Shown: positions 38,391 to 54,873 of the stretch, piece after piece | Layout: each line of letters opens with the position of its first letter | Numbering within the stretch: the first letter of the stretch is position 1 | NCBI GenBank assembly: GCA_934183325.1 | Contig: CAKPSH010000006.1 | Span: forward strand, 1,914 to 65,913 | Length of the DNA: 64,000 nucleotides | From: an uncultured Clostridia bacterium | GTDB taxonomy: Bacteria; Bacillota; Clostridia; TANB77; CAG-508 | Reading direction: 5' to 3' | Program-made: the position numbers and the translations under genes | The notes under the pieces: generated by a model | What the model saw: the letters and a program-made list of their open reading frames with translations, nothing else | What the model was told of the DNA's origin: nothing | Database searches by the model: none

Positions 38391-38652
38391 ATATGGTAAA
38401 TTAGCTAAAAGGTATTTGGAAGAATATAAGCCTTTTAAATTTCAACAACTTACTATGGATGGAAGTATTATGGATTATTTATTAGAATTTGAACAACATT
38501 TAAATGGTTATGCTAATTTGATTGAAATTGAACTTAAGCAAAAGTATCCTATGACAGATGATAAAAATAGTTTTATGGAGCAAGTTAAGTATTTGAATAT
38601 GATTCAGGAGATGGTGGATGCGTTTGTGAAAGAGGAGGTTAAATTGGTATAG
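38362..38652 (+). CDS. Hypothetical protein
   Basis: It is 96 aa and is followed by the strong terminator gccgaga-ttaa-ttctcggc at 38655-38685. Confidence 0.3.
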   Translation: MEVMVLKLNRYGKLAKRYLEEYKPFKFQQLTMDGSIMDYLLEFEQHLNGYANLIEIELKQKYPMTDDKNSFMEQVKYLNMIQEMVDAFVKEEVKLV

Positions 38653-38683
38653 AAAAAGCCGAGATTAATTCTCGGCTTTTTCA

Positions 38684-40156
38684 TTATTCATTTTCAATTT
38701 TTACTATATTTTCAAATTCTTCAATGGCTTTTTCTGCAACATATTGCAAATCTTTAGAAATTATCTGTCCATGTACTATTTCATTTCTTTGATCTTTTAT
38801 TTTGCTCAACTTTTTGTTTAATTGATTTTTAGTAATTGGCAATTGTTCATATTTATAAATCTCTGCATATATTTTATATATTGTTGGTGGATTATCCTTT
38901 ATAACATCATCTTTCTTAGCTTGTTCAAAATTTTTCTTACTTATATACTCTTTTAGAAAGTAGTCTTCATATTCTACAATCCCTCTAAAAAATTTTTCTA
39001 TTTGGCTATCTTCTAAATATTTTTTTAGTATCTTTTTTGAAAAATAATAAGTAAAATTTTCTAATGCTATATTTATCATAATAATTGCATTTTTATAATC
39101 CTTAATTAAATAATAATCTTTTGCATAATTAACTGCCAATTCCCATATATTATTTTCACTACTATTTAGTTCTTTATTTATACCTTTAAGTTCATCCTCT
39201 TTTAATCTTAATCTATTATTTCCGCTTGATGACAAACTCATTGAAATACTTAATGGAATATTTTTTATTTCAACATTTCCAGCTAACACTTTGGTTTTAA
39301 ATCTAAATATCATATTTTCATTTATCTCTGGTAACCAATATTTACCTGTTGAAATAATGTATTTCTTTAAAAAATAGTTATATACATTAATAGCTTCATT
39401 TAATGGTCTATAAACTTCATTAATTGTTTTGTTAACTTTAATTAATTCATTTCCATTTATATATTTTTCAATTGTCAATGTTACTATAGAACGATTCACT
39501 ATTCCATACTTATCTTTTTCTGTGTATATATTATCTCCTATAATAAAATTGGATTCTTGAGCTCTTATTGTTTCTGCTTTTATATAACACTTTGTCCCTT
39601 TATAATTAAATCCTATTTCATTTTCTTCATCTAGTATTAAATGATATGGTATTTCTAGTGTAACAATTGTTTTTAAATCTCCTCTTATTGCACTATTATA
39701 TATATTTTTTGTTTCATCTATTTTTTCTTTCAAATTGTTATTCCAACTTATATCATAATTAGAATCAATAAAATTTAATAATGTTTTAGCTTCTTCTAGC
39801 TTTCTAGAATTATTCGAATTTAGATATATCATTATCTTTTCTCTAGCCAACATTTGTTTTGTAGTACATTCGTTTATCATGCTATCTACATTATTGTATT
39901 TAGTCTTTATTTCTAATGACTTTTCAAAAAACTTTTCTGAACTACTATATTCATTAGCTTCAAAATATAAAGCTCCCATTTGTCTATAAATAATATAAAT
40001 ATTACTCATTATGAGTGTTCTACACTCTATTTTTAATTTCTCATATACTTCACATGCTTCTATACCTATTTTAACTCTTTCATCATGTTCTATCCCTTTA
40101 TTTCCGATAATGCTTGATATATATATTATTCTATTTATTATTTCCTGATTATTCAT
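38684..40156 (-). CDS. Large helical-repeat protein with a C-terminal HEPN-like Rx4H motif. It is a putative abortive-infection or RNase effector.
   Basis: 490 aa. The N-terminus has TPR-like repeats. The C-terminal ...KIKDQRNEIVHGQ matches the HEPN R[N]xxxH signature. Confidence 0.4.
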   Translation of the reverse strand: MNNQEIINRIIYISSIIGNKGIEHDERVKIGIEACEVYEKLKIECRTLIMSNIYIIYRQMGALYFEANEYSSSEKFFEKSLEIKTKYNNVDSMINECTTKQMLAREKIMIYLNSNNSRKLEEAKTLLNFIDSNYDISWNNNLKEKIDETKNIYNSAIRGDLKTIVTLEIPYHLILDEENEIGFNYKGTKCYIKAETIRAQESNFIIGDNIYTEKDKYGIVNRSIVTLTIEKYINGNELIKVNKTINEVYRPLNEAINVYNYFLKKYIISTGKYWLPEINENMIFRFKTKVLAGNVEIKNIPLSISMSLSSSGNNRLRLKEDELKGINKELNSSENNIWELAVNYAKDYYLIKDYKNAIIMINIALENFTYYFSKKILKKYLEDSQIEKFFRGIVEYEDYFLKEYISKKNFEQAKKDDVIKDNPPTIYKIYAEIYKYEQLPITKNQLNKKLSKIKDQRNEIVHGQIISKDLQYVAEKAIEEFENIVKIENE

Positions 40157-40301
40157 TTTTCACTTTCTCTCTATATAATTAGTTTAACATATTATATTAC
40201 TTTTTCCTTACAATACAAACACACTAAAGATTTTAGATGTTTTTCTCTGTATTCTTAAAAAACAAATTTTAATAAATAAGTAAATTACATAAAAAGTCCT
40301 G

Positions 40302-40919
40302 TTAAGTTTTTTCTATTAAATAATCATTTAATATTTCTCTCAAAATTGTTTGAACTTTTCTTCTTAATCCATCTACTTCTTCTATGATCTTTTCATTAAA
40401 AATCCCTTGAGAAATTTGTATATCGACACCTACTTCGTGTTCATATTGTCCCTTTTTATTTTTGGAAACAAGTACATTCATATTTTTTTGTTTTAAATCT
40501 TCTTGGATATCTTTGTATTCTTCAAAATCTTTAGATTCAATGCAATAATGAAACACTTCATTTCTAAAATTTAAATATTTTGCATTTATAGTATTGGGCT
40601 TATTCCTCGGATTTTCCAATTCATCTGCTATTTCTAATAATATTCTTTTTACCAATACATTATTTTCCCATTTTGCCATTATTCCTGTAAATCTATCAGA
40701 TCTCTTTATTGTTCCTAAAATTTTAAGAGTTTCTTTCAAGTGTGCTGTTAATAATTTAAAGAAATAAATCTGAGCTTCATAACTTGCATCACCTTTCACT
40801 TTATTAAATAAAGTGGTATTTATTTGTAAATCATTGTATGCTCTTGTTATTAAAAAAATAGCAAAACCTTCATAATCATCTTTATAATATTTTTCTCTAT
40901 CAATCATTATTTCATTCAT
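40302..40919 (-). CDS. HEPN-motif protein, translationally coupled to the QueC-like gene
   Basis: 205 aa with an NFRNEVFHY Rx4H motif. Its start overlaps the stop of the upstream QueC-like gene by 8 nt. Confidence 0.45.
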   Translation of the reverse strand: MNEIMIDREKYYKDDYEGFAIFLITRAYNDLQINTTLFNKVKGDASYEAQIYFFKLLTAHLKETLKILGTIKRSDRFTGIMAKWENNVLVKRILLEIADELENPRNKPNTINAKYLNFRNEVFHYCIESKDFEEYKDIQEDLKQKNMNVLVSKNKKGQYEHEVGVDIQISQGIFNEKIIEEVDGLRRKVQTILREILNDYLIEKT

Positions 40920-42213
40920 CTTTATTCCATCCTTTAATTTGTTTAAAATATTCTTCTAATTCGCAATTGAATTTTTGCAACATTTCATCTATTTTTTCCT
41001 GCCAATCCGCATCTTCATAATATTCTTTTTTTAAATCTAAATAATTATAAATAGTTCCTTCTTTGATATGTTTGTAATATAATTTATAATATTCTAATAG
41101 TGACCTTTTTTCGTTAAATTTATATATAGAAGCTTTTTCATCTTTTTCAATATTTTTTTGCTTAGATATACTTTTTTCATATTTTCTAATGTTTTGAAAA
41201 TCACCTAAGTTTTCTGGCAATAAATACTCACAATCTTCTCTATTATTATATATCATGCCAATTTGCCTTAAAATACAAGCAATGCAAACTCCACAATGAA
41301 AATTTCCTTTTTTCTTATTTCTAAAATGTCTGATTCCTGGATTCTTTGAACATGTCCTTGTAAACTTTTTTATATATTGGTCATATTCTTTTGGAATTAT
41401 TTTAATTATATCTGCTTTAGTCTTATATTTAAATGGATTAATTATTTTTATATTAATTTCTAATTTTTCTAAAATTTTATTTATTAAAAATAAAGTTTTT
41501 TGATTTGTTGTTTTGGTAACTCTTCTACTAAAATTAAATTTAGGATTTAAGGACATTATTCCATTTTCATATATTTTCACTTCATTTATTCTATAATAAT
41601 CTGCATAAATTAAGCTACTTGCAATAAATATTAATGATCTAGTTCTTTCTGTATAGTGTTCTTTCTCTTCCAAACCTATTTTTTTAATCACTACATGTTT
41701 GTTATTGTCATTTTTTATTAAATTCTCATAAATATCATTTGAATTATTTACTTCTATAGGATTAGTTTCAAATGTTACAAATATGGTTTTGTTATTTTTT
41801 TCTACTACACTTCCCGACATAGAATCTAATCCACCTGATAGAACACAAATAGAGTTGTATTCTATCCCATCACAAATACTTTTTTGCTCTCTACCTATTT
41901 CCTTTATCTCTTTTTGGTATTCAAAATTAACATTCCATTTTTCGCCATTTGTCATATAATTTAATAGAATTTCTATATCCTGTTTTACTTCATTAAATTT
42001 TTCTATATTATTTACCGGAATAGTTATATTTAATTTTTGCTTGTTATTTACATCTTCATCTCTAGGAGTGAAAAAATCCGTATAACAAATGTATGATATC
42101 ATATCAAAAAAATCCAATACAATTGTATTAGTATACTCATTAATATCTAATAAATTTTTATCATCATAATGTAATAAATACGGATTTTTATCTTTAAATT
42201 TACTTTTATTCAT
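40912..42213 (-). CDS. QueC-like PP-loop ATP pyrophosphatase (7-cyano-7-deazaguanine synthase-like) with a ~115-aa N-terminal extension
   Basis: 433 aa. It has the SGGLDS PP-loop (CVLSGGLDSMSGS) and a C-terminal CGVCIACILRQ zinc-binding Cys cluster, as in QueC. It overlaps both neighbouring genes. Confidence 0.7.
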   Translation of the reverse strand: MNKSKFKDKNPYLLHYDDKNLLDINEYTNTIVLDFFDMISYICYTDFFTPRDEDVNNKQKLNITIPVNNIEKFNEVKQDIEILLNYMTNGEKWNVNFEYQKEIKEIGREQKSICDGIEYNSICVLSGGLDSMSGSVVEKNNKTIFVTFETNPIEVNNSNDIYENLIKNDNNKHVVIKKIGLEEKEHYTERTRSLIFIASSLIYADYYRINEVKIYENGIMSLNPKFNFSRRVTKTTNQKTLFLINKILEKLEINIKIINPFKYKTKADIIKIIPKEYDQYIKKFTRTCSKNPGIRHFRNKKKGNFHCGVCIACILRQIGMIYNNREDCEYLLPENLGDFQNIRKYEKSISKQKNIEKDEKASIYKFNEKRSLLEYYKLYYKHIKEGTIYNYLDLKKEYYEDADWQEKIDEMLQKFNCELEEYFKQIKGWNKDE

Positions 42214-42889
42214 ATTCTACATCTCCACGCAATTTCTTAATAATATTCGAGAAAGCATTATTTACTTTACTTGCAAAAGTATCTTCTTGTTCAAGTATTT
42301 CATCTGTAAATTCTATTTCTTCAAATTCGACTTGAATTATTGGAACAACTTTTTCTTCCATATAATAATTAATACTATTGGAATACTCTTCACTATCGAA
42401 TTTTTCTAATGAATTAAGTGCATCTTCGTATGTAAATTGCTTATAAATATTAGAAATTATATTTTTTACATATTGTGTGATAAATCTTATAATATTTAGA
42501 GATTTATCAAATATATTATTTTTTTCTAATGTTTCTTTTAAAGATGTTTTTAGCAATTCATTGTTAGATATTCCTAAATAATCACATACTTTCTCTTTGA
42601 GCTCTATATTTGAATATCTAGATAATCCTCCAAGTCCTATTGAAGAAAGTGTGCCTGAATTTACAGCCTTGGAAATTTTAATTATATTTTTTATACTATT
42701 TGTACATTCTTTAGAATATAAATTTTCATTTAATGTTGCTTTTATTTTTGATTGTCCTTTTTTTGGGAAAAGTAATTTTGCTAGCAATTCTCCTATTCCT
42801 GCCCCCTGTTCATTTACTTTTCCATCTTCTATTCCCTCTTTTATGATCTTATCAGATCTTTTATAACTATTTCTTGTTGAAGATCCCAT
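42206..42889 (-). CDS. Hypothetical soluble protein, the partner of the QueC-like enzyme
   Basis: 227 aa with no known motif. It is translationally coupled to the QueC-like gene through an ATGA-type overlap. Confidence 0.4.
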   Translation of the reverse strand: MGSSTRNSYKRSDKIIKEGIEDGKVNEQGAGIGELLAKLLFPKKGQSKIKATLNENLYSKECTNSIKNIIKISKAVNSGTLSSIGLGGLSRYSNIELKEKVCDYLGISNNELLKTSLKETLEKNNIFDKSLNIIRFITQYVKNIISNIYKQFTYEDALNSLEKFDSEEYSNSINYYMEEKVVPIIQVEFEEIEFTDEILEQEDTFASKVNNAFSNIIKKLRGDVEYE

Positions 42890-42907
42890 TTTATCACCTT
42901 TTTCATC

Positions 42908-43726
42908 TTATATATTATTTTTTATTTTTCCTACCTCTATTTTTTCATCTTCTTTTACTTTAAATTCTACTGTTCCTATGTACCCTCCTGGTTCAAAAAT
43001 GTTTGTTGCGGTATATTGTACTTGTACTTCTTGCTTGTACCAATTTGATAGCACATCTTGATAATAAATAATAATACTCATTTCATATGGTATGTTTGAA
43101 CTCTTCAATGAAAAAATTTTTCTTATTACTTTTTCTTCTCCTTTTTCCATTACTTCTATAGAATTTTTTCCTAATAATCTCTCTGTAGTATTATTTATTA
43201 TATCTGATTTAAAATCCACTTTTAAATTTTTAATATTATTCAAGCCAATATTTTTCAAATATATATTTAATTTATATGGTATTCCCTTTTCAATATCAGT
43301 AATTATTAGTTCATCTAATTCCCCTGTTCCACTTTCTACTGTATCAAAAGAATATTTTAAAGTAGGCATATTCTGTAATCTCATATTTTCTTTATCTCTT
43401 TTTATACTATCTTCATTATTCTTTTTTATTTGTACAATAGTCACAATTACTAATACTACAGCTCCAATAATTGCAGAAATAACTCCTGACGAATAACTAG
43501 CTAAAAAGGATAACCAATTTTGAGAATTTACATTAACACTCCACCCTAATAATGTTGGTATATTATATCTATCTAGATAATATAGCGATATAGGAATAAT
43601 ACTAACAAAAAAAAGTAATATATATAAGCTTTTTTCTAAATCGTCCTTACATCTCTTATAATTAATATAACAAAAAACTCCCATTCCTAATAGTATTAAA
43701 ACTACTATTATTACATTTAATATCAT
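42908..43726 (-). CDS. Membrane protein with 3 N-terminal TM helices and a ~170-aa C-terminal soluble domain. It is a candidate effector or sensor.
   Basis: 272 aa. Its hydrophobic segments include VIIVVLILLGMGVFCYI, LYILLFFVSIIPISLYYL and GVISAIIGAVVLVIVTIVQI. Confidence 0.5.
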   Translation of the reverse strand: MILNVIIVVLILLGMGVFCYINYKRCKDDLEKSLYILLFFVSIIPISLYYLDRYNIPTLLGWSVNVNSQNWLSFLASYSSGVISAIIGAVVLVIVTIVQIKKNNEDSIKRDKENMRLQNMPTLKYSFDTVESGTGELDELIITDIEKGIPYKLNIYLKNIGLNNIKNLKVDFKSDIINNTTERLLGKNSIEVMEKGEEKVIRKIFSLKSSNIPYEMSIIIYYQDVLSNWYKQEVQVQYTATNIFEPGGYIGTVEFKVKEDEKIEVGKIKNNI

Positions 43727-43924
43727 AATTATCGCCTCTTTTTATATTATATTATATTTTTTTGCAAACTTTGTCGTACTCTGTCGTTTATTATCAAAAA
43801 AGCAAAATAATTCTGTAATTACTATTTAATCACATCCTATTTTGCTTTTCTTTTGTAATTTTATATTTCTCTCTATACTAAAAATATTTAATATATAATA
43901 TTTATTGATATTTTTTTCTTTATT

Positions 43925-45040
43925 CTATTTGTTATCTATATATTTTTTCTTTAATATACTAGTAATAACATCTCTAGTTATTCTATTTATTTCTCTAGCA
44001 TTTGTAAATTTATCTGCATTGCTTAATAGTAATTCATTTGTTTTTTCTTCTTTTAAAATAGCTATTTGTTCAGCATCTAAATATTTTAAATACTCCTCAT
44101 AATTTTTTTCTATAATTATCTTACAAGCATTAATATCCAATGCATTAAATTTCACAAAGCCATCAAATCTATTATAAATAGGTAAACCTAGATTATTTTT
44201 TATATCTTCTATATTTTCATAGTTTGAAGTACAAATTATGATTGAATTTTTTAATTCTACTGAATAATTTTTATCAACAAATATGCCTTCATCAAAAAGT
44301 TGATAAAATGCACTAAAAAACACTTTGTTCGCTTTATCAAATTCATCTAATAAAATAACATTTGTTTCTCTATCTAATAAATCTTTTGAAAAGCTACTTT
44401 CGGAATGTTTTGTTCCAAATACATAATTTGCAAAGTCTTCATTTTGAAACATTGAAAATTGTTTTCTAAATAATTCTCCTCCCATTTTTTGAGAAATAAA
44501 CTTAGCTGTTTCAGTTTTTCCTACACCACTTGGTCCATAAAACATTAAAATTAATGGTTTATTATTAAAGAAATCAAATGTTGCAGAATATAGTAAATTT
44601 ATAAGTTCCTCTTTTGCACATTCTTGACCAATTATATTTTTTGAAAATTTCTCATTAATTTCTTTAACACATTTCTCATCAATCTTTTTATATTCATATA
44701 TTTTTTCTAAGCAATTTTCTGTTTTTATCAATCTATTATATACTTGTATTGGTGGATTTTGTAAGTAAACATTTTCAATATCAAATCTATTTAAAAAAGC
44801 TTCAATATTATATAATACCCATTCATTTACCATTGAATATTCATCAGATAAAATTACTAAATTCTCTATTTTTCCTATATCATTAGATGTTTTAGGACTT
44901 ACGCCATCTATCTCTATTGTTTTTTCTTCTTTTTGCACTTTTCTTACTAATTCAGAAAAGCTAAACTGTCCACTTAATTTATATTCTTCTTCAAATCCAT
45001 TTAAAGGTCCCCAAAATATATATTTATTCATCTGTAACAC
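43925..45040 (-). CDS. AAA+ ATPase (ClpA/B-D2-like AAA_2 type)
   Basis: 371 aa with Walker A (FYGPSGVGKTETAKFIS), Walker B (VILLDEFDKA) and sensor-1 (IIICTSNY) motifs. Confidence 0.75.
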   Translation of the reverse strand: MLQMNKYIFWGPLNGFEEEYKLSGQFSFSELVRKVQKEEKTIEIDGVSPKTSNDIGKIENLVILSDEYSMVNEWVLYNIEAFLNRFDIENVYLQNPPIQVYNRLIKTENCLEKIYEYKKIDEKCVKEINEKFSKNIIGQECAKEELINLLYSATFDFFNNKPLILMFYGPSGVGKTETAKFISQKMGGELFRKQFSMFQNEDFANYVFGTKHSESSFSKDLLDRETNVILLDEFDKANKVFFSAFYQLFDEGIFVDKNYSVELKNSIIICTSNYENIEDIKNNLGLPIYNRFDGFVKFNALDINACKIIIEKNYEEYLKYLDAEQIAILKEEKTNELLLSNADKFTNAREINRITRDVITSILKKKYIDNK

Positions 45041-45776
45041 CTGCCAATATTACATCATAAACATCTAATGCACCTTCATCACTCTGTGCTTTATTACCTA
45101 GAATTTCACTTGCAGTTATAGCATTCTCTACCATTTTTATTTCATTTTCTAACTCCATTTTATTCTTTTGTATTTTTCCGACTTTAACAGCATATACATC
45201 TAAACTCATTTTTAAAATATCCGATAATTTATAATTATTTCTAAACGTATTAGTATTAAATCTCAATACATCCATTTGATTTCCATTTTTTGAAATTACT
45301 TCTGTATATCCTTTTACACTATTTAAAACATTATCTAGGTTAGTTAGATTCATCCCCTGATAGTTATTAGCTCCATTAATTAAATCCATATATGGTGTGT
45401 ATAGTCTGTAATATGCCATTGAATTAGGATAAACTTCTATTTTTATATTTTTAAATACTTTTACCTTTCTATCTCTATTTGCTTTTTTAATATAATCAGT
45501 AAGTACCGTATTACTTAAAGTAGTAGTATTGGCTTTACTTAAATCTCCATCCACTTTACCTCCTGCTCCAAAATTCGAATTAAATACTAACTTTTTTATA
45601 ATCGAAGCAACTTTATTTTGAGAATTTTCATCTAGAATATCTCCTAGCTCAGCTGATATTTTTCCTTCAATTGTTCCATTAAATTTTGTTATATTTTCAG
45701 TTACTTTTTTCCCTCCATCTTTTAGAATTATATAATCCAGTGCTGATTCTTCATCAAAATATACTATCTTCTGCAT
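45024..45776 (-). CDS. Hypothetical protein, coupled to the AAA ATPase
   Basis: 250 aa. It overlaps the ATPase start by 17 nt. No motif was recognised. Confidence 0.4.
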   Translation of the reverse strand: MQKIVYFDEESALDYIILKDGGKKVTENITKFNGTIEGKISAELGDILDENSQNKVASIIKKLVFNSNFGAGGKVDGDLSKANTTTLSNTVLTDYIKKANRDRKVKVFKNIKIEVYPNSMAYYRLYTPYMDLINGANNYQGMNLTNLDNVLNSVKGYTEVISKNGNQMDVLRFNTNTFRNNYKLSDILKMSLDVYAVKVGKIQKNKMELENEIKMVENAITASEILGNKAQSDEGALDVYDVILAGVTDE

Positions 45777-45807
45777 CTTTTCACCTCTTCTTTAATATTT
45801 TTATTTT

Positions 45808-47781
45808 TTATTCATATCTATATTCTTCTCCTTCTTCTGCAACTTTTAATTCATAAGTTTCTTCTTCATCTATTGAATAAGTAATTTCATCCTTCTGATT
45901 TAATCTGCTTTTTAAATATTTTGCTAAATTCTTATCTGTACAATAAATATAACATCCTTTTTGTCCTCTTGTCATTAATGTCCTATAAGTATTTTTTATA
46001 ATTTCATCAGCAACTTTCATAGCATTATTAAAGTCTTGTTGCGCCATTTTATATATTCCTTTTATTGATTGATCGGTCTTGGCTCTTTCTGTAACATCTG
46101 TAACTATTTTGCCATTTTCATATCTTAAATCATTTCCAATAATTACTCCAACATAATCAAATTCTAATCCTTGAGCAGTATGTATACATCCAATTTCATT
46201 AACAGATTCAGCATCAATTGCCCATGTCTGACTATTTCCTAAATTCCAACTCATTGCAAAATCATATTCTGGAATTGTTATATCAAATACATCTGATTTA
46301 TTTTTTCCATCTTTTATCCAATCCCAACAATATCCAGCAAGCAGCCTTGCTTTATTGTTTATTTTATTTTTTTCGAAAATTATATTTCTTACTTCGTTAG
46401 GTGTATCACAAATTTTAATATCGTAATCCAAATCAAATCCATCACTATTAGCAGTCTTTCTTATTTCTAATACATCATCAAGCCAAGCAATATATCCATC
46501 AGACCCATTGCATCTAAATTGCGATTCTAATTCCATTATTTCTGATTCTGCATTTGCTTGTCTAATATATTTTTGTATTTCTTCAACACTTCCTATATCT
46601 TTTAAAGTTACTCTTTGTGACTCATCTATAAAGAATATTGAAAATTTGGATGCTTTAATAATTTCCTTTATTTGATTCTCACCTAAGTTCTGGAACATTC
46701 CAGACTTTGCATTTAACCTATGAGCTTCATCAACAATTAATACATCAAACTCATTCTCAACAGATTCAACAAATGAACCTGAGCCTTTAAATAAATTATT
46801 TATTCTTGTTCTTCTAAAATCACCACTTAATTTCGTTGCATATACATTTCTTGGTGCTGCATTCTTTGTTACATATGAACAAACCATATTTTCATTTGTT
46901 AGTTTTACTAAAAGATTAATAGCTAATACTGATTTTCCAGTGCCTGGTCCACCTTTTACAATTAAAGCTCTTTTATTTCCGTCTCTATATGATTTTCTAG
47001 CCATATCTAAAGCTGTTTCATATACAAGTTTTTGGTCATCTATCATTACAAATTCGTCATTACCTTTTAACATGCTAGATAACGCATCTTGTAGTGACTT
47101 AGAAGGTCTTATTTTTCCATTTTCAATCATATATAGTGTTTCTTTATCATCACCATATTTAATATACTTATTTATAAAATCTCTTAATTTTTCTACATCA
47201 CCTTTAATAAATGCAGGCGCTTTTTCTAAATAATATTTATAATTATCTGATAGTAATGTTGGTGGTGTTACAGTTAAATAATTATGAAGATATGCACATG
47301 GATGTAAATCTATTTTTCTATCTTGTACAGTCTCATTATAATCTTCTATTGTTGTTGCATATGACCATGCTTGATATGATGGATGTGCAACTTCTCTTAA
47401 AGCATGCCCTGTGTATGTTTGTACTATTCCATCTTTTCCATTAACTATATTAGCTTCCGTCCATTGTTTTAATTCAACAATAATAGCTGTATTTTTAAAT
47501 TTTCCGTCCTTACCTGTAATTATAAAGTCTACTCTTTTAGATGTATTTGGAATTTTAAATTCAATAGCTATTCCTACATTTCCAGGTATATTATTATCTA
47601 TTAAAACTTTCATCATATATTGCATAGAATTATTCCATGCTTTTCTTTCACTCTGCGATGTGTGATATCCCATTTTCTCATAAAATTTTTTATCTATATT
47701 CTCTTCAATTCTATCTTGCACAACATCTTCTACAAATAATTGCTTTGTTGCTTCATACACTATCATAATAATTGCCCCCAC
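45808..47781 (-). CDS. DUF2075/Schlafen-like protein: an N-terminal PD-(D/E)xK nuclease-like domain plus a P-loop helicase-like ATPase
   Basis: 657 aa with a KRVDFIITGKDGK...IIVELKQW (D..ELK) nuclease motif, Walker A (VKGGPGTGKS) and Walker B (VLIVDEAHRL) motifs. Confidence 0.65.
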   Translation of the reverse strand: MGAIIMIVYEATKQLFVEDVVQDRIEENIDKKFYEKMGYHTSQSERKAWNNSMQYMMKVLIDNNIPGNVGIAIEFKIPNTSKRVDFIITGKDGKFKNTAIIVELKQWTEANIVNGKDGIVQTYTGHALREVAHPSYQAWSYATTIEDYNETVQDRKIDLHPCAYLHNYLTVTPPTLLSDNYKYYLEKAPAFIKGDVEKLRDFINKYIKYGDDKETLYMIENGKIRPSKSLQDALSSMLKGNDEFVMIDDQKLVYETALDMARKSYRDGNKRALIVKGGPGTGKSVLAINLLVKLTNENMVCSYVTKNAAPRNVYATKLSGDFRRTRINNLFKGSGSFVESVENEFDVLIVDEAHRLNAKSGMFQNLGENQIKEIIKASKFSIFFIDESQRVTLKDIGSVEEIQKYIRQANAESEIMELESQFRCNGSDGYIAWLDDVLEIRKTANSDGFDLDYDIKICDTPNEVRNIIFEKNKINNKARLLAGYCWDWIKDGKNKSDVFDITIPEYDFAMSWNLGNSQTWAIDAESVNEIGCIHTAQGLEFDYVGVIIGNDLRYENGKIVTDVTERAKTDQSIKGIYKMAQQDFNNAMKVADEIIKNTYRTLMTRGQKGCYIYCTDKNLAKYLKSRLNQKDEITYSIDEEETYELKVAEEGEEYRYE

Positions 47782-47791
47782 TATTATTACT

Positions 47792-48106
47792 TTATAATTT
47801 ATTGTATTTTGTACTAACTCCCTTAGCTTTTTCTACTGGATATTTTTTCTTTGTCTTTTCTAGCTTTTTTAATATAATTTCTTCAGGATCCACATTTAAT
47901 TTCATGGCCATTTGAATACAGTATGTAAAAACATCTGCTAATTCTTCACATACTTCTTCCTTATTATAATTATTATTCCATTGAAAGCACTCCAATAGTT
48001 CTCCTGCTTCTATAGAAATTGATTTAGCTAGATTCTCTGGTGAATGAAATTGATCCCAATCTCTTTCTTCATTAAATTGCTTTATTTCTTTCATTAACTT
48101 ATCCAT
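47792..48106 (-). CDS. MazG-like nucleotide pyrophosphohydrolase (YpjD-like)
   Basis: 104 aa with RDWDQFHSPENLAKSISIEAGELLE and EELADVFTY, which are MazG all-alpha NTP-PPase motifs. Confidence 0.75.
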   Translation of the reverse strand: MDKLMKEIKQFNEERDWDQFHSPENLAKSISIEAGELLECFQWNNNYNKEEVCEELADVFTYCIQMAMKLNVDPEEIILKKLEKTKKKYPVEKAKGVSTKYNKL

Positions 48107-48414
48107 TACTCTGCCTCCTCTAAATAAATCTTTTTCACAAAAGCCCCTCTTTTTTCTTGTTTACCCATTCTTATTTTTTCAAATTCTTCAATTGAAACGT
48201 CCATAGAATTTAATATTCCATAAACAACCTCAACTATATCCGCTAATTCTTCAATATTGTTATCTTCTATATATTCTCTTACTTCTTCTTGTAGTTTTTT
48301 ATTTAATTCTTGTCTGTATTCATTATCATCTAATATTCTATATTTCGCTATTCTTCCATCTGCTTCAATAATATCTGTTATTTTATCTCTAACAAGTTTA
48401 TTATATATTTTCAT
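48106..48414 (-). CDS. Second MazG/HisE-like NTP pyrophosphohydrolase
   Basis: 102 aa with KLVRDKITDII and EELADIVEV motifs. It overlaps its neighbours by 1 nt on each side. Confidence 0.6.
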   Translation of the reverse strand: MKIYNKLVRDKITDIIEADGRIAKYRILDDNEYRQELNKKLQEEVREYIEDNNIEELADIVEVVYGILNSMDVSIEEFEKIRMGKQEKRGAFVKKIYLEEAE

Positions 48415-49427
48415 TATTTTCCTCCGATCCTACAAGTATAATTTGTTGCTTGCAATTTATCTCTATTTATTGCTCCTTTTATAATCTTTAAATCTGCAGA
48501 CATTGATTTTATGTTAAAGTTATAAACTCTATATAAATAATACTTATCTTGATATTGTTCAGAAAATTCAACTTCATTTTCTGATATATGAAACATATTA
48601 TTTAGCCCTCCTTTAGTTGTTTTAACTTCTATATATTTTTCATTTCCTTCTTTGTCATATGAAAGTACATCAAATCTTTCAGCATTTCCTGCAATATCTC
48701 TTGTTGCAAAAACTTTATCTGCTAGATCTTCTCTACCTTCTATTATAAGTCTAGTTTTTTCATATTCTACTACAATGTCTTCACCTTTTTTACCAAATTC
48801 TGTATTCTTTTTTATTTCTCCTTCGAAATTAATATTCTTATTACTATAAAAATCTTTTGTATTTTTTCCTTTTCTAACTTCAGATTCGTATGTATATTCT
48901 ATTTCATCTTCCTTTAATTCTAATGCAAACTTTTTAATATCTAATTTTTCAATATCATGTGTATCTATTTTTTTATCATTTATTATTCTGTTTGAATTAT
49001 CATCATTCCAGTCTAAAATCTGCCATTTAAAATAAACTGGTTTTTCTCTTTGATTGTCATGATCTACATATGCTAACAAACCCATATATGTATAATTTTC
49101 TTTATCAGATGTTCTTAGGAATAAATATATATTATTTTTTAAATAATCATGATTTATAAAATCGATTATTCTTGACTCCCTCAATGTTTGAGAAGGTTGT
49201 GATTGCCATGTTAAAATTCCATTTTCATCTATATTTTCATCAAACTCATGCCCAGACTGTTTTTTTCCGTACGTTACTAGAAATATATAATCATGCTGCG
49301 TTCCTGGAACTCTTATTATTCCTTGTAATCCCCAAGAGCCTGCTTGTGGTGTAAACTTTGTATCTGGTGAAAAGATATCATGTATATCTTCTCTCGAATA
49401 TTTTTCATATCTAATTAATTCTTGCAT
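48414..49427 (-). CDS. DUF3883-domain protein with an N-terminal uncharacterised domain
   Basis: 337 aa. The C-terminal GEDIVVEYE...FDVLSYDKEGNEKYIEVKTTKGG...FHISENEVEFS...YYLYRVYNF matches the DUF3883 pattern. Confidence 0.5.
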   Translation of the reverse strand: MQELIRYEKYSREDIHDIFSPDTKFTPQAGSWGLQGIIRVPGTQHDYIFLVTYGKKQSGHEFDENIDENGILTWQSQPSQTLRESRIIDFINHDYLKNNIYLFLRTSDKENYTYMGLLAYVDHDNQREKPVYFKWQILDWNDDNSNRIINDKKIDTHDIEKLDIKKFALELKEDEIEYTYESEVRKGKNTKDFYSNKNINFEGEIKKNTEFGKKGEDIVVEYEKTRLIIEGREDLADKVFATRDIAGNAERFDVLSYDKEGNEKYIEVKTTKGGLNNMFHISENEVEFSEQYQDKYYLYRVYNFNIKSMSADLKIIKGAINRDKLQATNYTCRIGGK

Positions 49428-49435
49428 TTTTCCTC

Positions 49436-49810
49436 CTATAATAAATCAAATACTATTTTATCTGCTCCTGCAAATTCAAAATCATCTTTTTGATTTTTTG
49501 TTATCCATTTACAACTTTCATGTTCCAACAATTCTACTTCTTCACTAAGTAATTTTGCTTTATAAAAAATTAATTTTATATCTTTCTCAGGATAATGGTG
49601 AATATTCTCTCCTATGTATTCCATTACTTCTATATCAGCATTAAATTCTTCTTTTATTTCTCTTTTTAATGCTTCTTGGTAAGATTCTTCTTTTTCAACC
49701 TTACCTCCTGGAAATTCCCATAATCCACCTTGATCCTTTTTTAAATTTCTCTGAGCCACTAAAAATTTATTTTCATTATTATATATAATCCCTGCTACTA
49801 CTTCTATCAT
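49436..49810 (-). CDS. NUDIX hydrolase (MutT-like)
   Basis: 124 aa with the NUDIX box GGKVEKEESYQEALKREIKEEFN. Confidence 0.85.
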   Translation of the reverse strand: MIEVVAGIIYNNENKFLVAQRNLKKDQGGLWEFPGGKVEKEESYQEALKREIKEEFNADIEVMEYIGENIHHYPEKDIKLIFYKAKLLSEEVELLEHESCKWITKNQKDDFEFAGADKIVFDLL

Positions 49811-49924
49811 ATATTTGCTCCATTTATTTTTTTATTAATATATCATAATTTCCAAATTTTCTCAATAAAACACACAATATTTTAGCCTATTTTGTCGAAA
49901 TATTTTTTCATTTTTTGAATATCT

Positions 49925-50233
49925 TTACAAACTATTTCCACCTAACTTATTTAGTTTATTCCATATCATATTTAACTCATGTTTAGTATTACTTAAATCA
50001 ACTGTATAAATTGCTCCACTATTAGCCAGATGTGTTAACTGATTTATATTATTTCCAATCTTCCTAAGCTCTGTTATTAAATCCTTAATCCCATCAATTA
50101 CTATTATATCTTTATCCAATCCTTGTTCTATCAAATATTCAGATAAACTTAACTCTGCTTTTTCACTATTTCTAACTAATCGTTCTTTCTCTTTTTTCGT
50201 AACTCTAATTGTTATCCTTTCATCTTTTCTCAT
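49925..50233 (-). CDS. MobC-like ribbon-helix-helix mobilization accessory protein
   Basis: 102 aa with ITIRVTKKEKERL...LSEYL (RHH) and KIGNNINQLTH, which resembles the MobC IGNNLNQIAR motif. Confidence 0.55.
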   Translation of the reverse strand: MRKDERITIRVTKKEKERLVRNSEKAELSLSEYLIEQGLDKDIIVIDGIKDLITELRKIGNNINQLTHLANSGAIYTVDLSNTKHELNMIWNKLNKLGGNSL

Positions 50234-50445
50234 CTCATCATCTCCATTTCATAAAAGGGTTTGGGACATCCCCAACTATCAAGACCCCTTTGTATACACA
50301 AAGGGGAATCTTGCTAAAAACATTTCTCTTATTTTAGTTCTTTTTTACTCTAAAACAACATAAAAAAAAAAGTGACATTTTTATCTGCCACTAATCATTT
50401 CACATCTAAAGTAATTTAGCTTATACTCCAGTTATCTTAACTATT

Positions 50446-51312
50446 TCAGAGTGATTCCCTAATTAGGGAATCGCTCATTCTATGGTCATCATCTTTAATT
50501 TCAATACCACCACACATTTCATATAATCTTGAAATTATTGAATCAACAATACTATAATTTTTATTTATACATAATCTTTCTCTTAATTGATTTCTGTTAT
50601 AATTTGTGGTTATAACAATTGGCAAATAATTATTATATCTATTATTCACTATCAAAAATAATTTTTCTAATACCCATTCTGTTGGCTTTTCTTTTCCTAA
50701 ATCATCAATTATCAAAAGATCCACACTAGAATATAAATTCAAATAATCTTTATCAGAAACTTCTGAATCGCTATATGAATCTCTAATAAAATCTAACAAT
50801 TGTATTAAAGTTCCAAATATTACTGATTTTTCGTTCTTAATAATTTCATTTGCAATGCATGATGCTAAATAAGTTTTACCTACACCATAAGCTCCTGTTA
50901 TAAAAAGTCCTTTATTAGTTGTTCCTTTTATCAATTTATCTACATATTTTTTAACATTTTCATAAGCATTTTTATTCTTATTTGTTATTTTATAATTTTC
51001 AAATGTGCTATTTAATTGACGTTTTCCTAAATTATTATTTTTAAATAATTTGTTTATTTTACTTAAATTGATTTTTCTTATTTTGTCTTTTTCAATGTAT
51101 TCATCATATTGTTGCCAAATCTTACTAGCCTCATTACAGGTACATCTTTCATATGCAGTTGCTATATCTTTATAAACAATATTAACATATAGTGCAGTAT
51201 AATCATTTATATGTAATAACTTTCCACAGAATTTGCACTGCTTGTGCATTTTATTATCAGTATCTAAAACTATGTCAGAAATCAATTGTTTTGAATCCAC
51301 TACCATTTTCAC
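50446..51312 (-). CDS. DnaC/IstB-like replicative helicase loader ATPase (phage type)
   Basis: 288 aa with Walker A (GAYGVGKTYLAS) and Walker B (LLIIDDLG) motifs and N-terminal Cys pairs. Confidence 0.8.
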   Translation of the reverse strand: MKMVVDSKQLISDIVLDTDNKMHKQCKFCGKLLHINDYTALYVNIVYKDIATAYERCTCNEASKIWQQYDEYIEKDKIRKINLSKINKLFKNNNLGKRQLNSTFENYKITNKNKNAYENVKKYVDKLIKGTTNKGLFITGAYGVGKTYLASCIANEIIKNEKSVIFGTLIQLLDFIRDSYSDSEVSDKDYLNLYSSVDLLIIDDLGKEKPTEWVLEKLFLIVNNRYNNYLPIVITTNYNRNQLRERLCINKNYSIVDSIISRLYEMCGGIEIKDDDHRMSDSLIRESL

Positions 51313-51790
51313 CTGCCTTTATATCATCTTCTAATCTATTATTTTCTATTTTATTCTTTTCTACTATATTCTCTTCTGCTACGTTACTTGACGTTTGTGT
51401 AACGTTACTTTCTTCTTTTTTCTTATCTCTAAATCTTTTTTGTCTTGCTCTATTTTGCTCTAAAATTTTCTCATATTTATCAATACTTTGATACTTATAC
51501 CAGTTTTTAATTATATATGTATTTTCCTGATATATTAGCATCTCTAAATGGATTAATTTGTTCAATATATTTTCCATTTTTGCATCCGTTTTGTGAATGA
51601 TTGTTGCAAGTTCATGCACTGTCATCGGATTATTTTCTGAAATCATTAACTTTCCTTCTTGCATACATTGTCCTGCTATTGTTAATAATTGAATCCATAC
51701 TCTAAAAAATGTGTCCCCATCACGTTCTTTGAGTAATATTTTGATTTTTGGATTTGCAAATATATCTGTAAACACTTTAATCCATTGCAT
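51275..51790 (-). CDS. Phage replisome organizer (N-terminal domain family)
   Basis: 171 aa. The N-terminal MQWIKVFTDIFANPKIKILL... is typical of phage_rep_org_N. It overlaps the dnaC-like gene. Confidence 0.6.
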   Translation of the reverse strand: MQWIKVFTDIFANPKIKILLKERDGDTFFRVWIQLLTIAGQCMQEGKLMISENNPMTVHELATIIHKTDAKMENILNKLIHLEMLIYQENTYIIKNWYKYQSIDKYEKILEQNRARQKRFRDKKKEESNVTQTSSNVAEENIVEKNKIENNRLEDDIKAGENGSGFKTIDF

Positions 51791-51802
51791 GTTTTCCCTC
51801 CT

Positions 51803-52030
51803 TTACTTTTTTAATGATTCTTGTTCTTTATTATTTAAGTATTCATCTAGTGCTTGTACTCTAAATAATACTCTTCCACCAACTCTTGCACATGGTATTT
51901 GTTTTCTTCTTACTAATTGATTTACTAACCAATATGATATTCCTAAATACTCTGCTGTTTCTTTCATTGTTAATGTTGTACGTTCTACTTTTGGTAAATT
52001 TTCCATATTATCACCTCCAATTTTTAACAC
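51803..52030 (-). CDS. xis: Excisionase/AlpA-type helix-turn-helix DNA-binding protein
   Basis: 75 aa. LTMKETAEYLGISYWLVNQLVRRKQIPCARVGGRVLF is the HTH_17/excisionase signature. Confidence 0.65.
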   Translation of the reverse strand: MLKIGGDNMENLPKVERTTLTMKETAEYLGISYWLVNQLVRRKQIPCARVGGRVLFRVQALDEYLNNKEQESLKK

Positions 52031-52197
52031 TTTTTAGCAACTTTTAGCAATTATTAGCACTTTTCTTGATTTTTAGTGCTTTGCCTTGTAAAATGTAACT
52101 AGCTAATTACTAATTGTTATTTTAATTGTTTAATTTTGAATTAAAAACCTGACAGGTAATAATTAGAAAAATTTTTTTAATTGTAGGGGGGATTATT

Positions 52198-53244
52198 ATG
52201 ATGGGTGATTTAAAAATTGCTTTTGATTTTATAAACTCTAAAGAATATGTGTCAAAATTTACAGCAGATGAATTTACTGATATAGATAAACTACCTGAAA
52301 ATTTAAAAGATAAAAAATTTTATATATTTAAAAATTGCGAACCACACTGTCAAGCAATAGGAACATTTTTACTTGATTTTATGAATACAGATTTTGATGA
52401 TTTTGAAGATTTTAGTTTATTACTAGATAAATATCTTTTTATTCCTTTATTGTTTTTCTATAATCCGAATATATTAAATGATTGTTTATATGGTAAAAAT
52501 GTAATATCTAAAAAAGAATATCTGAAAGAAAATATCTTGATATTATCTGAAGAAGAATTTATGTATTATTGGAAATTATTTTATGAAGAATACAACTGGG
52601 ATTTATCAACTACACAACTCAAATTTGAAAATATATTTGAAAATCAATATTATAAAAAATTCTTAGAGGTAACTAATGTCATGGATGATAATTATGACTT
52701 ATTTGAAGAATTTTCTAGGAAAGAAGATCATTTTTCCGCAATAAAAGATATTGCTCCAGAATTTACAACAATTGAAATGAGCTATGATGTAAAAGACTTT
52801 TGTGATAACACAAATATATATAATTACTTCTCTGCAAAAAATCCAATTGATATTGCTTATGTTTCTGCTAGAGAACTTTTGAACAACAAAAAAAGTTTTA
52901 GATTAGTACGTTGCGGTATTTGCAACTATTACTTTATACCTAAAACTTCTCATACAACTTTATATTGTGATGAAATCTATCAAGATGGGAAAACTTGTAA
53001 AGAATATGCTAAATTAATATCTACCACAAAAACTTATGAATCTGATCCTCTTTGTAAAAAATATAGGAATAGATACAAAAATTTGCATAAGCAAGCCTCT
53101 TTAAGCAATAATCCTAAGGTAAGTCTTTTATGTGAGGAGTATAAATTAAAAGGTCCTAAAATGCTTGAAAAATACCAACTTGGTAAAATCACTCCAGAAG
53201 AATTCGAAAATTGGATTGATGGGATGAAAATAAGGAAAAGCTGA
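52198..53244 (+). CDS. Hypothetical protein with a C-terminal Cys-rich (zinc-ribbon-like) region
   Basis: 348 aa with RCGICNYYF...YCDEIYQDGKTCKEY. The terminator agctgatattt-aacc-aaatatcagct lies at 53246-53275. Confidence 0.4.
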   Translation: MMGDLKIAFDFINSKEYVSKFTADEFTDIDKLPENLKDKKFYIFKNCEPHCQAIGTFLLDFMNTDFDDFEDFSLLLDKYLFIPLLFFYNPNILNDCLYGKNVISKKEYLKENILILSEEEFMYYWKLFYEEYNWDLSTTQLKFENIFENQYYKKFLEVTNVMDDNYDLFEEFSRKEDHFSAIKDIAPEFTTIEMSYDVKDFCDNTNIYNYFSAKNPIDIAYVSARELLNNKKSFRLVRCGICNYYFIPKTSHTTLYCDEIYQDGKTCKEYAKLISTTKTYESDPLCKKYRNRYKNLHKQASLSNNPKVSLLCEEYKLKGPKMLEKYQLGKITPEEFENWIDGMKIRKS

Positions 53245-53320
53245 TATTTAACCAAATATCAGCTTTTAAAATTATACTTCATATATAGATAAAAAATCTA
53301 ATTAAATAATTATTTTTATA

Positions 53321-54604
53321 TTACTTCGATGGAAATCCAATATTAGGTCTCATTCCACTTTGTATAAAATTGATTTTTCTAAAATTATAAAGTAGTTCAT
53401 TTAAATATACCAAGATAGTAATGTTATCATAACATAATAAAGCTAAGTCGCAAAGATACAATTCCACAACGTTTTCTTGACCTCTAAATTTATCGTAAAA
53501 AGTAATTTTTTGTGAACTAACATCAAAATCGTATGTATAATGTGCAATTGCATTGCGTATATTTCTATCTATTTTAACACATTTACTAAAAGGTTCTTCA
53601 AAAATCAAAGATTCTAATCTCTTCGATTTTACTAATTTATTATATTCCTCAAAGTTTGAAACATTAGCTCCATCAGAAAAACTATCATATGTTCCTCTTA
53701 AATAAATATTATTTAATCCTATTGCAATAGTTATCATATCTAATATTAATTCATAACTATCTTTATAAAAATTAATCATATCATCAAAACTTATCGTAGC
53801 AATTCCATAAATTTCTTTATCGAATTTTTCACGTAAATCTCCCAAGGAAATCATAACCATCGGAATATATTTTTCAAAGTTTTCTATCCATCTTGAATAA
53901 ATTTTTACAATTCTTTTTAAATTAAAATCAATTTCTTGATTTGTTTTTAAAAAATCTATAAATTTATATACTTCTAAAATAATTTCTTTATTCATCACTT
54001 TTTTTGATATTTCAATAAATTCATTAAGGGTATTAGGATCAAGTATTTTACTAAAGCCTATTACATTTGATTGGTGTAATGCCATTGCAACATCTAATTT
54101 ATTTTTTACAGTAAAATTAGGCGAAAGTTTAAGTATAGGCTCACGTATTAATTCAATTTTATCATTAAAATATAAATCATAAAGTGGTCTTAGTACATTC
54201 CAATTGTTTATTTTAAAAAATATAAATTCTTCTATATGTTTAACTAAATTCATATAATCTTGTCCTGATTCGAACAAATTTACAGTATCCATAAATGGCC
54301 CTGCCCCTTTAGAATACATTTGTTCAAAAGAAATATACTTGCTAATTTTTTTATGTGGTAATTCTACCGAAAAATCCGCATAATAATCTATATTATCTAG
54401 ACATTCTTCTATTTCTGTTGCATTATTAATTTCAAAAGAATTTTCAGTGGCAATTTTTCTAATTCCATTAATATTAACTTTACAATTGGGGCAGAAAAAA
54501 CTAAATGGGATATCAAATTCACCCATTTGAAATCGAAGAAGTATATTAGTTTTACAAAAATTACATTTTATATATATTCTATTTATCATAATTTCCCCCA
54601 TCAC
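53321..54604 (-). CDS. N-terminal zinc-ribbon plus C-terminal HEPN-motif protein (Abi-like)
   Basis: 427 aa with CNFC...CPNC at the N-terminus and a DRNIRNAIAHYTYD Rx4H motif near the C-terminus. Confidence 0.4.
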   Translation of the reverse strand: MMGEIMINRIYIKCNFCKTNILLRFQMGEFDIPFSFFCPNCKVNINGIRKIATENSFEINNATEIEECLDNIDYYADFSVELPHKKISKYISFEQMYSKGAGPFMDTVNLFESGQDYMNLVKHIEEFIFFKINNWNVLRPLYDLYFNDKIELIREPILKLSPNFTVKNKLDVAMALHQSNVIGFSKILDPNTLNEFIEISKKVMNKEIILEVYKFIDFLKTNQEIDFNLKRIVKIYSRWIENFEKYIPMVMISLGDLREKFDKEIYGIATISFDDMINFYKDSYELILDMITIAIGLNNIYLRGTYDSFSDGANVSNFEEYNKLVKSKRLESLIFEEPFSKCVKIDRNIRNAIAHYTYDFDVSSQKITFYDKFRGQENVVELYLCDLALLCYDNITILVYLNELLYNFRKINFIQSGMRPNIGFPSK

Positions 54605-54873
54605 ATAAATTAATTTTTATTTTATATTCATTCTCTGATAATAACTATATTCCATATACAAACAGTTTGCGTTCTTGTCAAAGAATTTAAAATTTAAAAA
54701 TTAGTATCTAATAATTTTTCATAAATTTCTATTATTACAATACTTCTATTTAATATACTATTTATTAATATTAGCTTATTATTTAATTTATCAACACCTC
54801 TATATTAGTTTAATATAGAAATTTTATACTTTTCCGATATTTCATCAAGTTTTTAAATAAGTTCCATTTTATT

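Follow-up and report, generated by a model that had tools for sequence, protein, structure and literature searches.

Do nucleotide pyrophosphatases and nucleases that are encoded next to each other on a mobile element constitute one functional system, or have several systems been stacked? This question is raised by a block of seven genes (g1-g7, positions 43925-49810) on contig CAKPSH010000006.1 of an uncultured Clostridia bacterium (GenBank assembly GCA_934183325.1). Positions 1,914 to 65,913 of this contig, a stretch of 64,000 nucleotides, are called the window throughout. The block is carried by an integrative island and consists of seven intact open reading frames (ORFs), all on the minus strand. 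They code for a NUDIX protein (g1), a putative modification-dependent nuclease (g2), two predicted MazG-type pyrophosphatases (g3, g4), a DUF2075 protein with a nuclease motif (g5) and the two components of the defence system Dodola (g6, g7). An initial annotation of this DNA had proposed a composite system of nucleotide depletion and nuclease activity, a stack of two or three systems, or a counter-defence function. Comparison with related loci indicates that the seven genes are, with high probability, three separable stacked modules (g1-g3, g4-g5, g6-g7) and not one system. As overall explanation we favor, at a probability of roughly 60%, a three-module defence cargo with pyrophosphatases acting on 5-substituted deoxycytidine triphosphates (dCTPs).

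Modular organization of the seven-gene block

Two samples of homologous loci were compared. The first one comprised 80 species-level genome loci with g5 homologues (60-94% identity) and the second one 41 metagenome loci with g2 homologues. The ORFs of both sets were labelled by phmmer, and single loci are cited below by their numbers (L). Here, we found that none of the 22 sister loci with g1-g5 at 81-91% identity contained Dodola. Only one of the 80 g5 loci had a Dodola nearby, and this was a different one (33-39% identity, 1.8 kb away). In addition, g4-g5 occurred without g1-g3 in some loci and g2 without g4-g5 in others (L107/L108, L111-L120). These data bear out the suggestion of two or three stacked systems. 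The idea of a composite nucleotide-depletion plus nuclease system does not hold for all seven genes, but for g1-g5 it stands in part, since there the pyrophosphatases are co-conserved with the nucleases. Taken together, gene order across the homologous neighbourhoods is modular, with Dodola as a separate entity.

In PADLOC, g6 matched DolA (E-value 1.6e-58; residues 1-247 against profile positions 5-257 of 258) and g7 matched DolB (4.2e-126; residues 4-370 against 2-374 of 375). Pfam recognized DUF6414 in g6 (7e-21) and AAA_2 in g7 (2e-14), which is ClpB-D2-like and carries Walker A and Walker B motifs. The two genes are adjacent and co-oriented, and their ORFs overlap by 8-17 nt. When compared with Dodola (DolA/DolB; Millman et al. 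2022), both proteins match end to end and nothing structural differs. Dodola is a self-contained two-gene system active against SPP1 (PMC11514479). At the position after g5, other loci carry an AriA/PARIS-like ATPase, an OLD/Gabija-like ATPase, a type IV methyl-directed enzyme, a Ppl-like protein or RnlA/RnlB, and the Dodola of the window is one cassette in this variable slot. Since Dodola is missing from the sister blocks, the contents of the slot vary and the system is self-contained, g6-g7 are, judged by these profile matches, a complete and independent Dodola cassette.

For g1, g2 and g5 PADLOC returned candidate or partial matches. The domain calls of the initial annotation for g1, g2, g4, g5 and g7 agreed with our Pfam and PADLOC searches. 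Its count of two unknown proteins was too high, as only g6 (DUF6414/DolA) lacks a general label, and the items it named add up to eight instead of seven. A known phage nucleotide-metabolism module, which had been considered as alternative identity of the genes, was not recognized: a blastn search against 50,697 phage records yielded five partial matches, each covering at most 19% of the query, and no close relative of g4 was found in IMG/VR.

Coupling of pyrophosphatase and nuclease genes

When the 1213 ORFs around the 80 g5 loci were clustered without prior labels, the g4 family took the top rank (49 of 80 loci). It was accompanied by families of g1-like NUDIX genes (17 loci), g3-like genes (14 loci) and SauUSI-like genes of the phospholipase D (PLD)-helicase-DUF3427 type (11 loci, eight of them in the distant identity tiers). 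These four families ranked above or level with the backbone genes of the element. g1-like genes adjoined DUF3427 proteins in 13 of 14 loci, and all nine SauUSI-like genes inspected had a g1-like NUDIX gene within two genes. The set of g5, g3-like, HNH, NUDIX and SauUSI-like genes is present in one order in a Clostridia metagenome-assembled genome (L009) and in another order in Bacillaceae (L062, L075). Close relatives of g2 always show the arrangement g1-g2-g3-g4-slot-g5. Homologues with ~60% identity (L107/L108) are organized as g2-g3-PLD-helicase, which corresponds to a split SauUSI, and only 1 bp separates a ~40%-identical homologue (L119/L120) from a NUDIX gene downstream. Genes for C5-cytosine methylases were found in nine loci. 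The coupling between pyrophosphatase and nuclease genes is strong but not obligatory. Since the modules g4-g5 and g1-g3 recur together in varied orders in distant Bacillota, they are probably allies.

Parts of this linkage are already known. A conserved MutT/pyrophosphohydrolase gene beside SauUSI, with at least 60 such pairs and a 'function to be examined', was reported early on (Xu et al. 2011; PMC3141236), and MutT homologues are drawn next to SauUSI homologues in Streptococcus (Bell et al. 2020; PMC7641849). For McaZI-type genes, one of three organisations adjoins DUF2075, and cooperation was proposed (Lutz et al. 2019; PMC6765204). Thus, the NUDIX-SauUSI and the DUF3427-DUF2075 linkages were noted in 2011, 2019 and 2020. 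Moreover, an HNH group adjoins MazG genes (Jablonska et al. 2017; PMC5714182), and MazG domains have been predicted as defensive by DefensePredictor, without validation (PMC13092281). The ~120 related loci indicate that the linkage is general: it involves three pyrophosphatase folds and at least three nuclease architectures, and it survives rearrangement of the gene order.

g4 was identified by Pfam as MazG-like (PF12643, 1.3e-20), as were 18 of 18 family members. In the Protein Data Bank (PDB) it matched dCTP pyrophosphatase 1 (DCTPP1; 6sqw, 1e-16) and entry 4qgp (1e-17), and the whole DCTPP1 core was aligned. The pocket of DCTPP1 is formed by H38, W47, E63, E66, W73, E95, D98 and Y102, and the human enzyme acts preferentially on 5-methyl- and 5-halo-dCTP and regulates both the cellular level of 5-methyl-dCTP and DNA methylation (PMC4491611). 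Seven of these eight pocket and catalytic residues, including both tryptophans contacting the 5-substituent, are kept in g4 (W47, E63, E66, W73, E95, D98 and Y102 correspond to W17, E33, E36, W43, E55, D58 and Y62). The metal site (EExxE...ExxD; E33, E36, E55, D58) does not vary among 18 homologues with identities down to 41%. The mammalian enzyme (DCTPP1/RS21-C6) is a housekeeping protein, whereas g4 is cargo of a mobile defence island and is coupled to a nuclease.

The partner of g4 combines a DUF2075 domain (PF09848, SLFN-g3 helicase, 2.7e-105; Walker A GGPGTGKS at residues 272-279, DEAH at 346-349) with an N-terminal PD-(D/E)xK motif (D80...E98-x-K100) on predicted beta-strands, which was seen as a motif only, with no profile match. 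PADLOC gave partial matches to PDC-S41, AbiO and Nhi (1e-15 to 1e-17). Its models for Nhi and AbiO align with no more than the helicase core of this protein, and a full-length match to the Nhi model was not obtained. The PDB sequence search returned P-loop noise only, and the AlphaFold2 model was unreliable (predicted local distance difference test, pLDDT, 41.6; alignment of 24 sequences, all at least 87% identical). With Nhi (Bari et al. 2022) and Nhi-like proteins (Millman et al. 2022), g5 shares the architecture of nuclease motif plus DUF2075 superfamily 1 helicase and the setting in defence islands. However, Nhi acts alone, whereas g5 is a member of another, very large clade (at least 8000 clusters at 90% identity) with a dedicated MazG partner.

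Counting of g4 genes within 4 kb of g5 was based on 77 species-level loci in three tiers of g5 identity. Here, g4 was present in 48 of 77 loci, and this number rose to 57 when g3-like genes were added. The proportion was 26/28 in the tier of at least 78% identity, 15/15 at 64-67% and 7/34 at 60-63%. The pairing was kept when the genes were inverted (L088) or divergent (L041), and an independent gene caller combined with Pfam labels recovered it in another island (RepA_N, two methylases, MazG-like, g5, RnlAB, Fic). In the window the gap between g4 and g5 is empty. In contrast, 15 of 26 close loci carry co-oriented, tightly packed inserts at this place (slot loci: L009, L012, L014, L015, L017, L019, L022, L024, L032, L034, L035, L037, L057, L061, L089-L110). 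Contents of the modified-DNA type are a SauUSI-like PLD-helicase-DUF3427 protein plus NUDIX (plus g3-like, HNH) and an AspBHI-like enzyme dependent on 5-methylcytosine (5mC). Other inserts code for a GIY-YIG-DUF2075 paralogue, an HNH protein, a T5orf172-like protein of 479 amino acids (aa) and a pair of 114 and 125 aa. A slot limited to modified-DNA nucleases was considered and rejected in view of the unrelated inserts listed in the next section. Unrelated co-oriented inserts are likewise found among defence genes embedded in defence operons (PADLOC 'HEC', Hma-embedded candidates); here they lie between g4 and g5 and after g5, and the frame is the MazG-DUF2075 pair. Thus, g4 and g5 form a conserved pair and at the same time the borders of a cargo slot, and the literature we searched contained no description of a MazG-DUF2075 pair. 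In the 64-67% clade, a Fic-domain protein of 278-281 aa is encoded 9-10 bp upstream of g4, giving the arrangement Fic-MazG-DUF2075 (L042, L043, L049-L051, L064, L074). In Bacillaceae, a divergent Xre-type helix-turn-helix (HTH) gene and an ORF of 67-69 aa precede g5 (L052, L058, L062, L067, L075).

The first gene of the block, g1, matched NUDIX (4e-19) and NUDIX_4 (1e-18) in Pfam, with an intact NUDIX box (residues 36-55), and the single-gene candidate PDC-S07 in PADLOC (1.4e-42). The second-best NCBIfam model, and the best one that describes a characterised enzyme, was NudG, a diphosphatase of pyrimidine deoxynucleoside triphosphates (dNTPs; 9.5e-29), and MutT matched as well. Judged from these scores, g1 is related to the NudG/MutT families and is not an equivalog. 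It shares the canonical NUDIX box with the E. coli house-cleaning enzymes NudG and MutT but differs from them as nuclease-coupled cargo of an island.

In g2, Pfam detected the core part of DUF3427 (PF11907, 2.8e-14; residues 2-135 against profile positions 125-265 of 280) and NOV_C, the former DUF3883 (PF13020, 1.4e-18). The PD-(D/E)xK residues D253 and E267-x-K269 are present and there is no helicase domain. phmmer linked the DUF3427 part to the C-terminus of SauUSI-like proteins, PADLOC matches were confined to the nuclease half (PDC-S36, 1e-33; PD-T4-1, 6e-19), and the PDB sequence search gave no match. The same architecture (DUF3427 reader, DUF3883/NOV_C nuclease, no helicase), with a DUF2075 gene nearby, characterizes the McaZI group, which binds DNA containing 5mC or 5-hydroxymethylcytosine (5hmC) and restricts T4gt (Lutz et al. 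2019); binding or restriction was shown for McaZI, BwiMMI and EfaL9I only (PMC6765204). On the basis of this likeness, g2 is a candidate McaZI-type modification-dependent restriction endonuclease. SauUSI (Xu et al. 2011) has its own PLD nuclease and a superfamily 2 helicase, whereas g2 has neither; a MutT/pyrophosphohydrolase gene adjoins SauUSI and likewise lies beside g2. Unlike McaZI and SauUSI, g2 is flanked by two pyrophosphatase genes, which are followed by a third one. An identification of g2 as PD-T4-1 was rejected, as only residues 150-333 match the profile (positions 189-376 of 383) and the N-terminal half is unmatched; the preprint of Vassallo et al. holds no domain description of PD-T4-1.

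g3 itself had no significant Pfam match, and its AlphaFold2 model was unreliable (pLDDT 47.5; 19 sequences, at least 84% identical). However, nine of 12 family members matched PRA-PH (PF01503) and two of 12 PF12643, and a protein identical to g3 is named nucleoside triphosphate (NTP) pyrophosphohydrolase of the MazG superfamily by NCBI and JGI. The motif EExxE...EELAD (E43, E44, E47, E55, E56, D59) is invariant in the family, and the family profile matched the HisIE PRA-PH domain in the PDB at 0.005. Alignment of the g3 and g4 families by hhalign gave an E-value of 2e-4 at a probability of only 45%. From the family matches in Pfam, the PDB profile match and the conserved motif, and not from hhalign, we place g3 in the MazG/PRA-PH superfamily, as a predicted small all-alpha NTP pyrophosphohydrolase of COG4997 type. 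Among the viral contigs of IMG/VR the g3 family has 147 relatives (36-51% identity), and in L130/L131 a g3-like domain appears fused into a SauUSI-like protein of 817 aa.

A possible self-protection function and its alternatives

Type IV restriction has no methylase, and how self-attack caused by modified nucleotides is avoided has hardly been asked. We tentatively propose that g1, g3 and g4 convert 5-substituted dCTPs, and non-canonical dNTPs related to them, to monophosphates by hydrolysis. dNTPs are suggested as substrates by the DCTPP1 pocket largely kept in g4 and by the NudG-likeness of g1; E. coli NudG hydrolyses 5-methyl-dCTP and 5-hydroxy-dCTP. By this activity the host chromosome would be kept free of modified bases, so that its own modification-dependent nucleases would not attack it, and the pyrophosphatases would provide an 'immunity' function equivalent to that of the methylase in classical restriction-modification. 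The pool of modified dNTPs needed by hydroxymethylcytosine-type phages would also be drained. By analogy with the McaZI group, g2 would read 5mC/5hmC-type bases via DUF3427 and would nick or cut via its PD-(D/E)xK domain. g5 may unwind and degrade phage DNA alone, as Nhi does. Alternatively, g5 may be the motor that g2 lacks relative to SauUSI; since g2 has no helicase, any motor activity would have to be supplied by g5. Dodola would act independently. All catalytic motifs are intact. A more general and still more doubtful extension is that small dNTP pyrophosphatases (NUDIX, COG4997-MazG, DCTPP1-like) are the missing 'immunity' partners of modification-dependent nucleases and that the MazG-DUF2075 pair is an undescribed, very widespread two-gene defence system of Bacillota as well as a docking frame for further nucleases that attack modified DNA. 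If this were true, sanitising of the nucleotide pool would be a simple self/non-self principle for type IV systems and a bacterial parallel to the mammalian DCTPP1, which guards methylation patterns. The MazG-DUF2075 pair, with its at least 8000 protein clusters, is an uncharacterised candidate for a defence system that is common in the gut of humans. Should sanitising prove wrong, what is left is an ordinary defence island that carries the known Dodola system.

Several observations weigh against this explanation. The specificity of g1, g3 and g4 is not fixed by sequence alone. g1 stays below the equivalog cut-offs (NudG 99.9 bits vs 156, MutT 77.8 vs 148), and the position of DCTPP1 H38 is variable and occupied by I8 in g4. 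The g3 family is common in viral contigs, and only six of 80 examined members adjoin a SauUSI-like gene (L130-L209). McaZI-type enzymes exhibit little nuclease activity in vitro (PMC6765204), g2 is mostly alone at 37-47% identity, and the Nhi match of g5 (1.2e-15) is confined to the helicase core (profile positions 122-332 of 470). In most loci g4-g5 has no modification-dependent nuclease nearby, so that the role of g4 cannot depend on one. The slot also holds unrelated S24-peptidase-like (138-140 aa), SAP, DUF4236 and unknown small proteins, and in view of these inserts g4 and g5 could simply flank an insertion hotspot. Finally, the cargo is ~90% identical between islands whose backbones share only 41-50%, and the g1-g5 order in close relatives may therefore partly reflect recent shared descent and cassette spread.

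In another scenario, g4 and g5 are non-cooperating backbone genes that flank defence hotspots, and g5 may help the element to replicate or to be transferred. In favor of this, the pair of Clostridia elements stands directly after a module of replisome organiser, DnaC, MobC and relaxase, a variety of cassettes has entered the gap between the two genes and the position after g5, and the pair (~90% identity) is more conserved than the backbone (41-50%). Yet the pair persists in Bacillaceae chromosomes without Rep/Mob genes (g5 60-63%, g4 38-50% identity, inverted or divergent). It is also kept throughout the 64-67% tier, the nuclease plus DUF2075 architecture of g5 is that of validated defence proteins, and the surrounding genes are defence genes. 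We consider this scenario quite improbable. Little more can be said for a role of the pyrophosphatases as effectors that destroy canonical dCTP or dNTPs, comparable to dCTP deaminase and dGTPase, with the nucleases as independent neighbours. DCTPP1 also hydrolyses dCTP (PMC4491611), g1 matches PDC-S07, and the DefensePredictor result on MazG domains is in line with it. On the other hand, no MazG defence has been validated (PMC13092281), and PADLOC showed no homology of the seven proteins to the known depletion enzymes dCTP deaminase and dGTPase. The pyrophosphatases are constitutive-looking enzymes of ~100-125 aa without sensor or regulatory domain, and they are tightly and specifically coupled, g4 with g5 and g1 with DUF3427 proteins. 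Such a depletion mechanism appears improbable.

For counter-defence, the NUDIX and MazG enzymes would have to degrade alarmones or immune signalling nucleotides of the recipient cell on behalf of the element. Phages do encode MazG and NUDIX proteins, g3 has its viral relatives, g1 and g4 match PHROG families, and the block adjoins mobilisation genes. The substrates pointed to by the MutT/NudG-like g1 and by the largely kept cytosine pocket of the DCTPP1-like g4 are dNTPs, however, and the same enzymes accompany type IV restriction genes, including chromosomal ones of the SauUSI type (PMC3141236, PMC7641849). In addition, the neighbours are nucleases and defence systems rather than anti-restriction genes, and the close g4 relative is lacking in IMG/VR. 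This third proposal of the initial annotation is thus very unlikely. We attach an equally low probability to one integrated seven-gene system, in which the pyrophosphatases deplete nucleotides on infection, while the AAA+ ATPase and the nucleases carry out or control the response. The operon-like spacing without convincing internal terminator and the intact block in at least eight aligned island copies (22 contigs read) would fit such a system. However, these copies are 99.5-99.9% identical and as such uninformative on selection, and the distribution of Dodola described above (0/22 sister blocks, a different Dodola at 1/80 g5 loci) as well as its self-sufficiency as two genes speak against a single system.

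Gene layout and carrying element

The coordinates of the genes and of further features are summarized in Table 1. The seven co-oriented ORFs with their short gaps and overlaps are as initially annotated; from g1 to g7 the junctions measure +8, -1, -1, +10 (or +25), +31 and -17 (or -8) nt, depending on the start codons of g5 and g7. For g5 the ATG is the probable start, as in public gene calls, and for g7 the ATG is probable as well, which leaves an 8-nt overlap with dolA.

Table 1. Coordinates of genes and other features in the window
Feature	Position	Strand	Remarks
g1	49436-49810	-	124 aa
g2	48414-49427	-	337 aa
g3	48106-48414	-	102 aa
g4	47792-48106	-	104 aa
g5	45808-47781	-	657 aa from GTG; 652 aa from ATG at 47766
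g6	45024-45776	-	250 aa
g7	43925-45040	-	371 aa from GTG; 368 aa from ATG at 45031
Promoter-like site	49837-49865	-	TTGAGA, 17-nt spacer, TG-extended TATATT; consensus match only
Hairpin terminator	38652-38682	bidirectional	strong, 13 bp stem; closes 12-gene minus-strand cargo block
Integrative island	37971-58236		~20 kb; shared block end 58236; integrase, replication genes, mobC, cargo, TnpV
Tyrosine integrase	56743-57942		in island
mobC/nikA-like	49925-50233	-	in island

The promoter-like site falls inside the 114-bp gap between mobC and g1, and a GGAG ribosome-binding site is located 8 nt before the ATG of g1. Overall, the promoter scan of this AT-rich DNA performed no better than shuffles (103 sites found vs 116 expected). 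On the minus strand from 49810 to 38684 no convincing intrinsic terminator was found, the sole match of the scan being a weak 6-bp hairpin inside g5. The GC content of the genes (0.23-0.28) does not separate the modules. Transcription of the cargo probably starts at one promoter downstream of mobC; a single transcript, as initially annotated, is plausible and consistent with these sequence features.

The island cargo comprises g1-g7 and five more genes. On the same strand upstream of g1 lie the mobC/nikA-like gene, a DnaC-like gene, a replisome organiser and an HTH_17 excisionase-like gene, and TnpV is located at the far end of the island. The exact g2 protein is present in 89 index blocks. 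At least eight loci align to positions 38414-58236 of the window (19.8 kb) at 99.5-99.9% identity (22 contigs read, gut metagenomes), and the genes past 58236, the integrase end, differ among the copies (Big_2, ASCH, HTH_1 or NUDIX). A near-identical block with different flanks confirms the earlier view of a mobile island. An exact 20-bp direct repeat (TTGATCCCCAATTTCTCCCC) at 37971-37990 and 58076-58095 is a candidate core of the attachment (att) site; it lies 140 bp inside the block common to other contigs. No tRNA was found at the island ends or within the window. In four sister islands (L091/L093/L094/L101), a MobA/VirD2-type relaxase (456-477 aa) is encoded directly upstream of g1 with a gap of 107 bp, whereas tblastn detected no relaxase homologue in the window. 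Since mobC is present but a relaxase is not, this copy has probably lost self-mobilisation, and the element is a formerly mobilizable integrative island of ~20 kb of human-gut Clostridia. Between islands (L017, L037, L091-L098 vs the window), the g1-g5 cargo is 84-93% identical and the replisome organiser and DnaC-like proteins differ as given above, so the g1-g5 cassette seems to move between different element backbones. In L004, g5 is disrupted by a rearrangement of ~100 bp and only a 79-aa remnant is called, and in L005 g4 is truncated to 42 aa; both island copies are otherwise 99.6-99.9% identical. Thus, single genes can decay while the island persists.

Five cargo genes follow Dodola on the minus strand (38684-43726). 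They code for a membrane protein of 272 aa, a 227-aa protein, a QueC/QatC-like PP-loop protein of 433 aa (PADLOC QatC, 4.5e-38) a 205-aa protein and a TPR-like protein of 490 aa. QatA, QatB and QatD were not found beside the QatC-like gene, the set was seen in no sister island, and it may represent a defence system of the QueC family that departs from the canonical type. A type I-B CRISPR-Cas locus (Cas6b, 7e-78; Cas8b, 2.5e-88) is located at 26628-36451, immediately beyond the TnpV end of the island, and its array (~26628-27975) has the 30-bp repeat ATTTACATTCTAATATATTTATATTAATAC.

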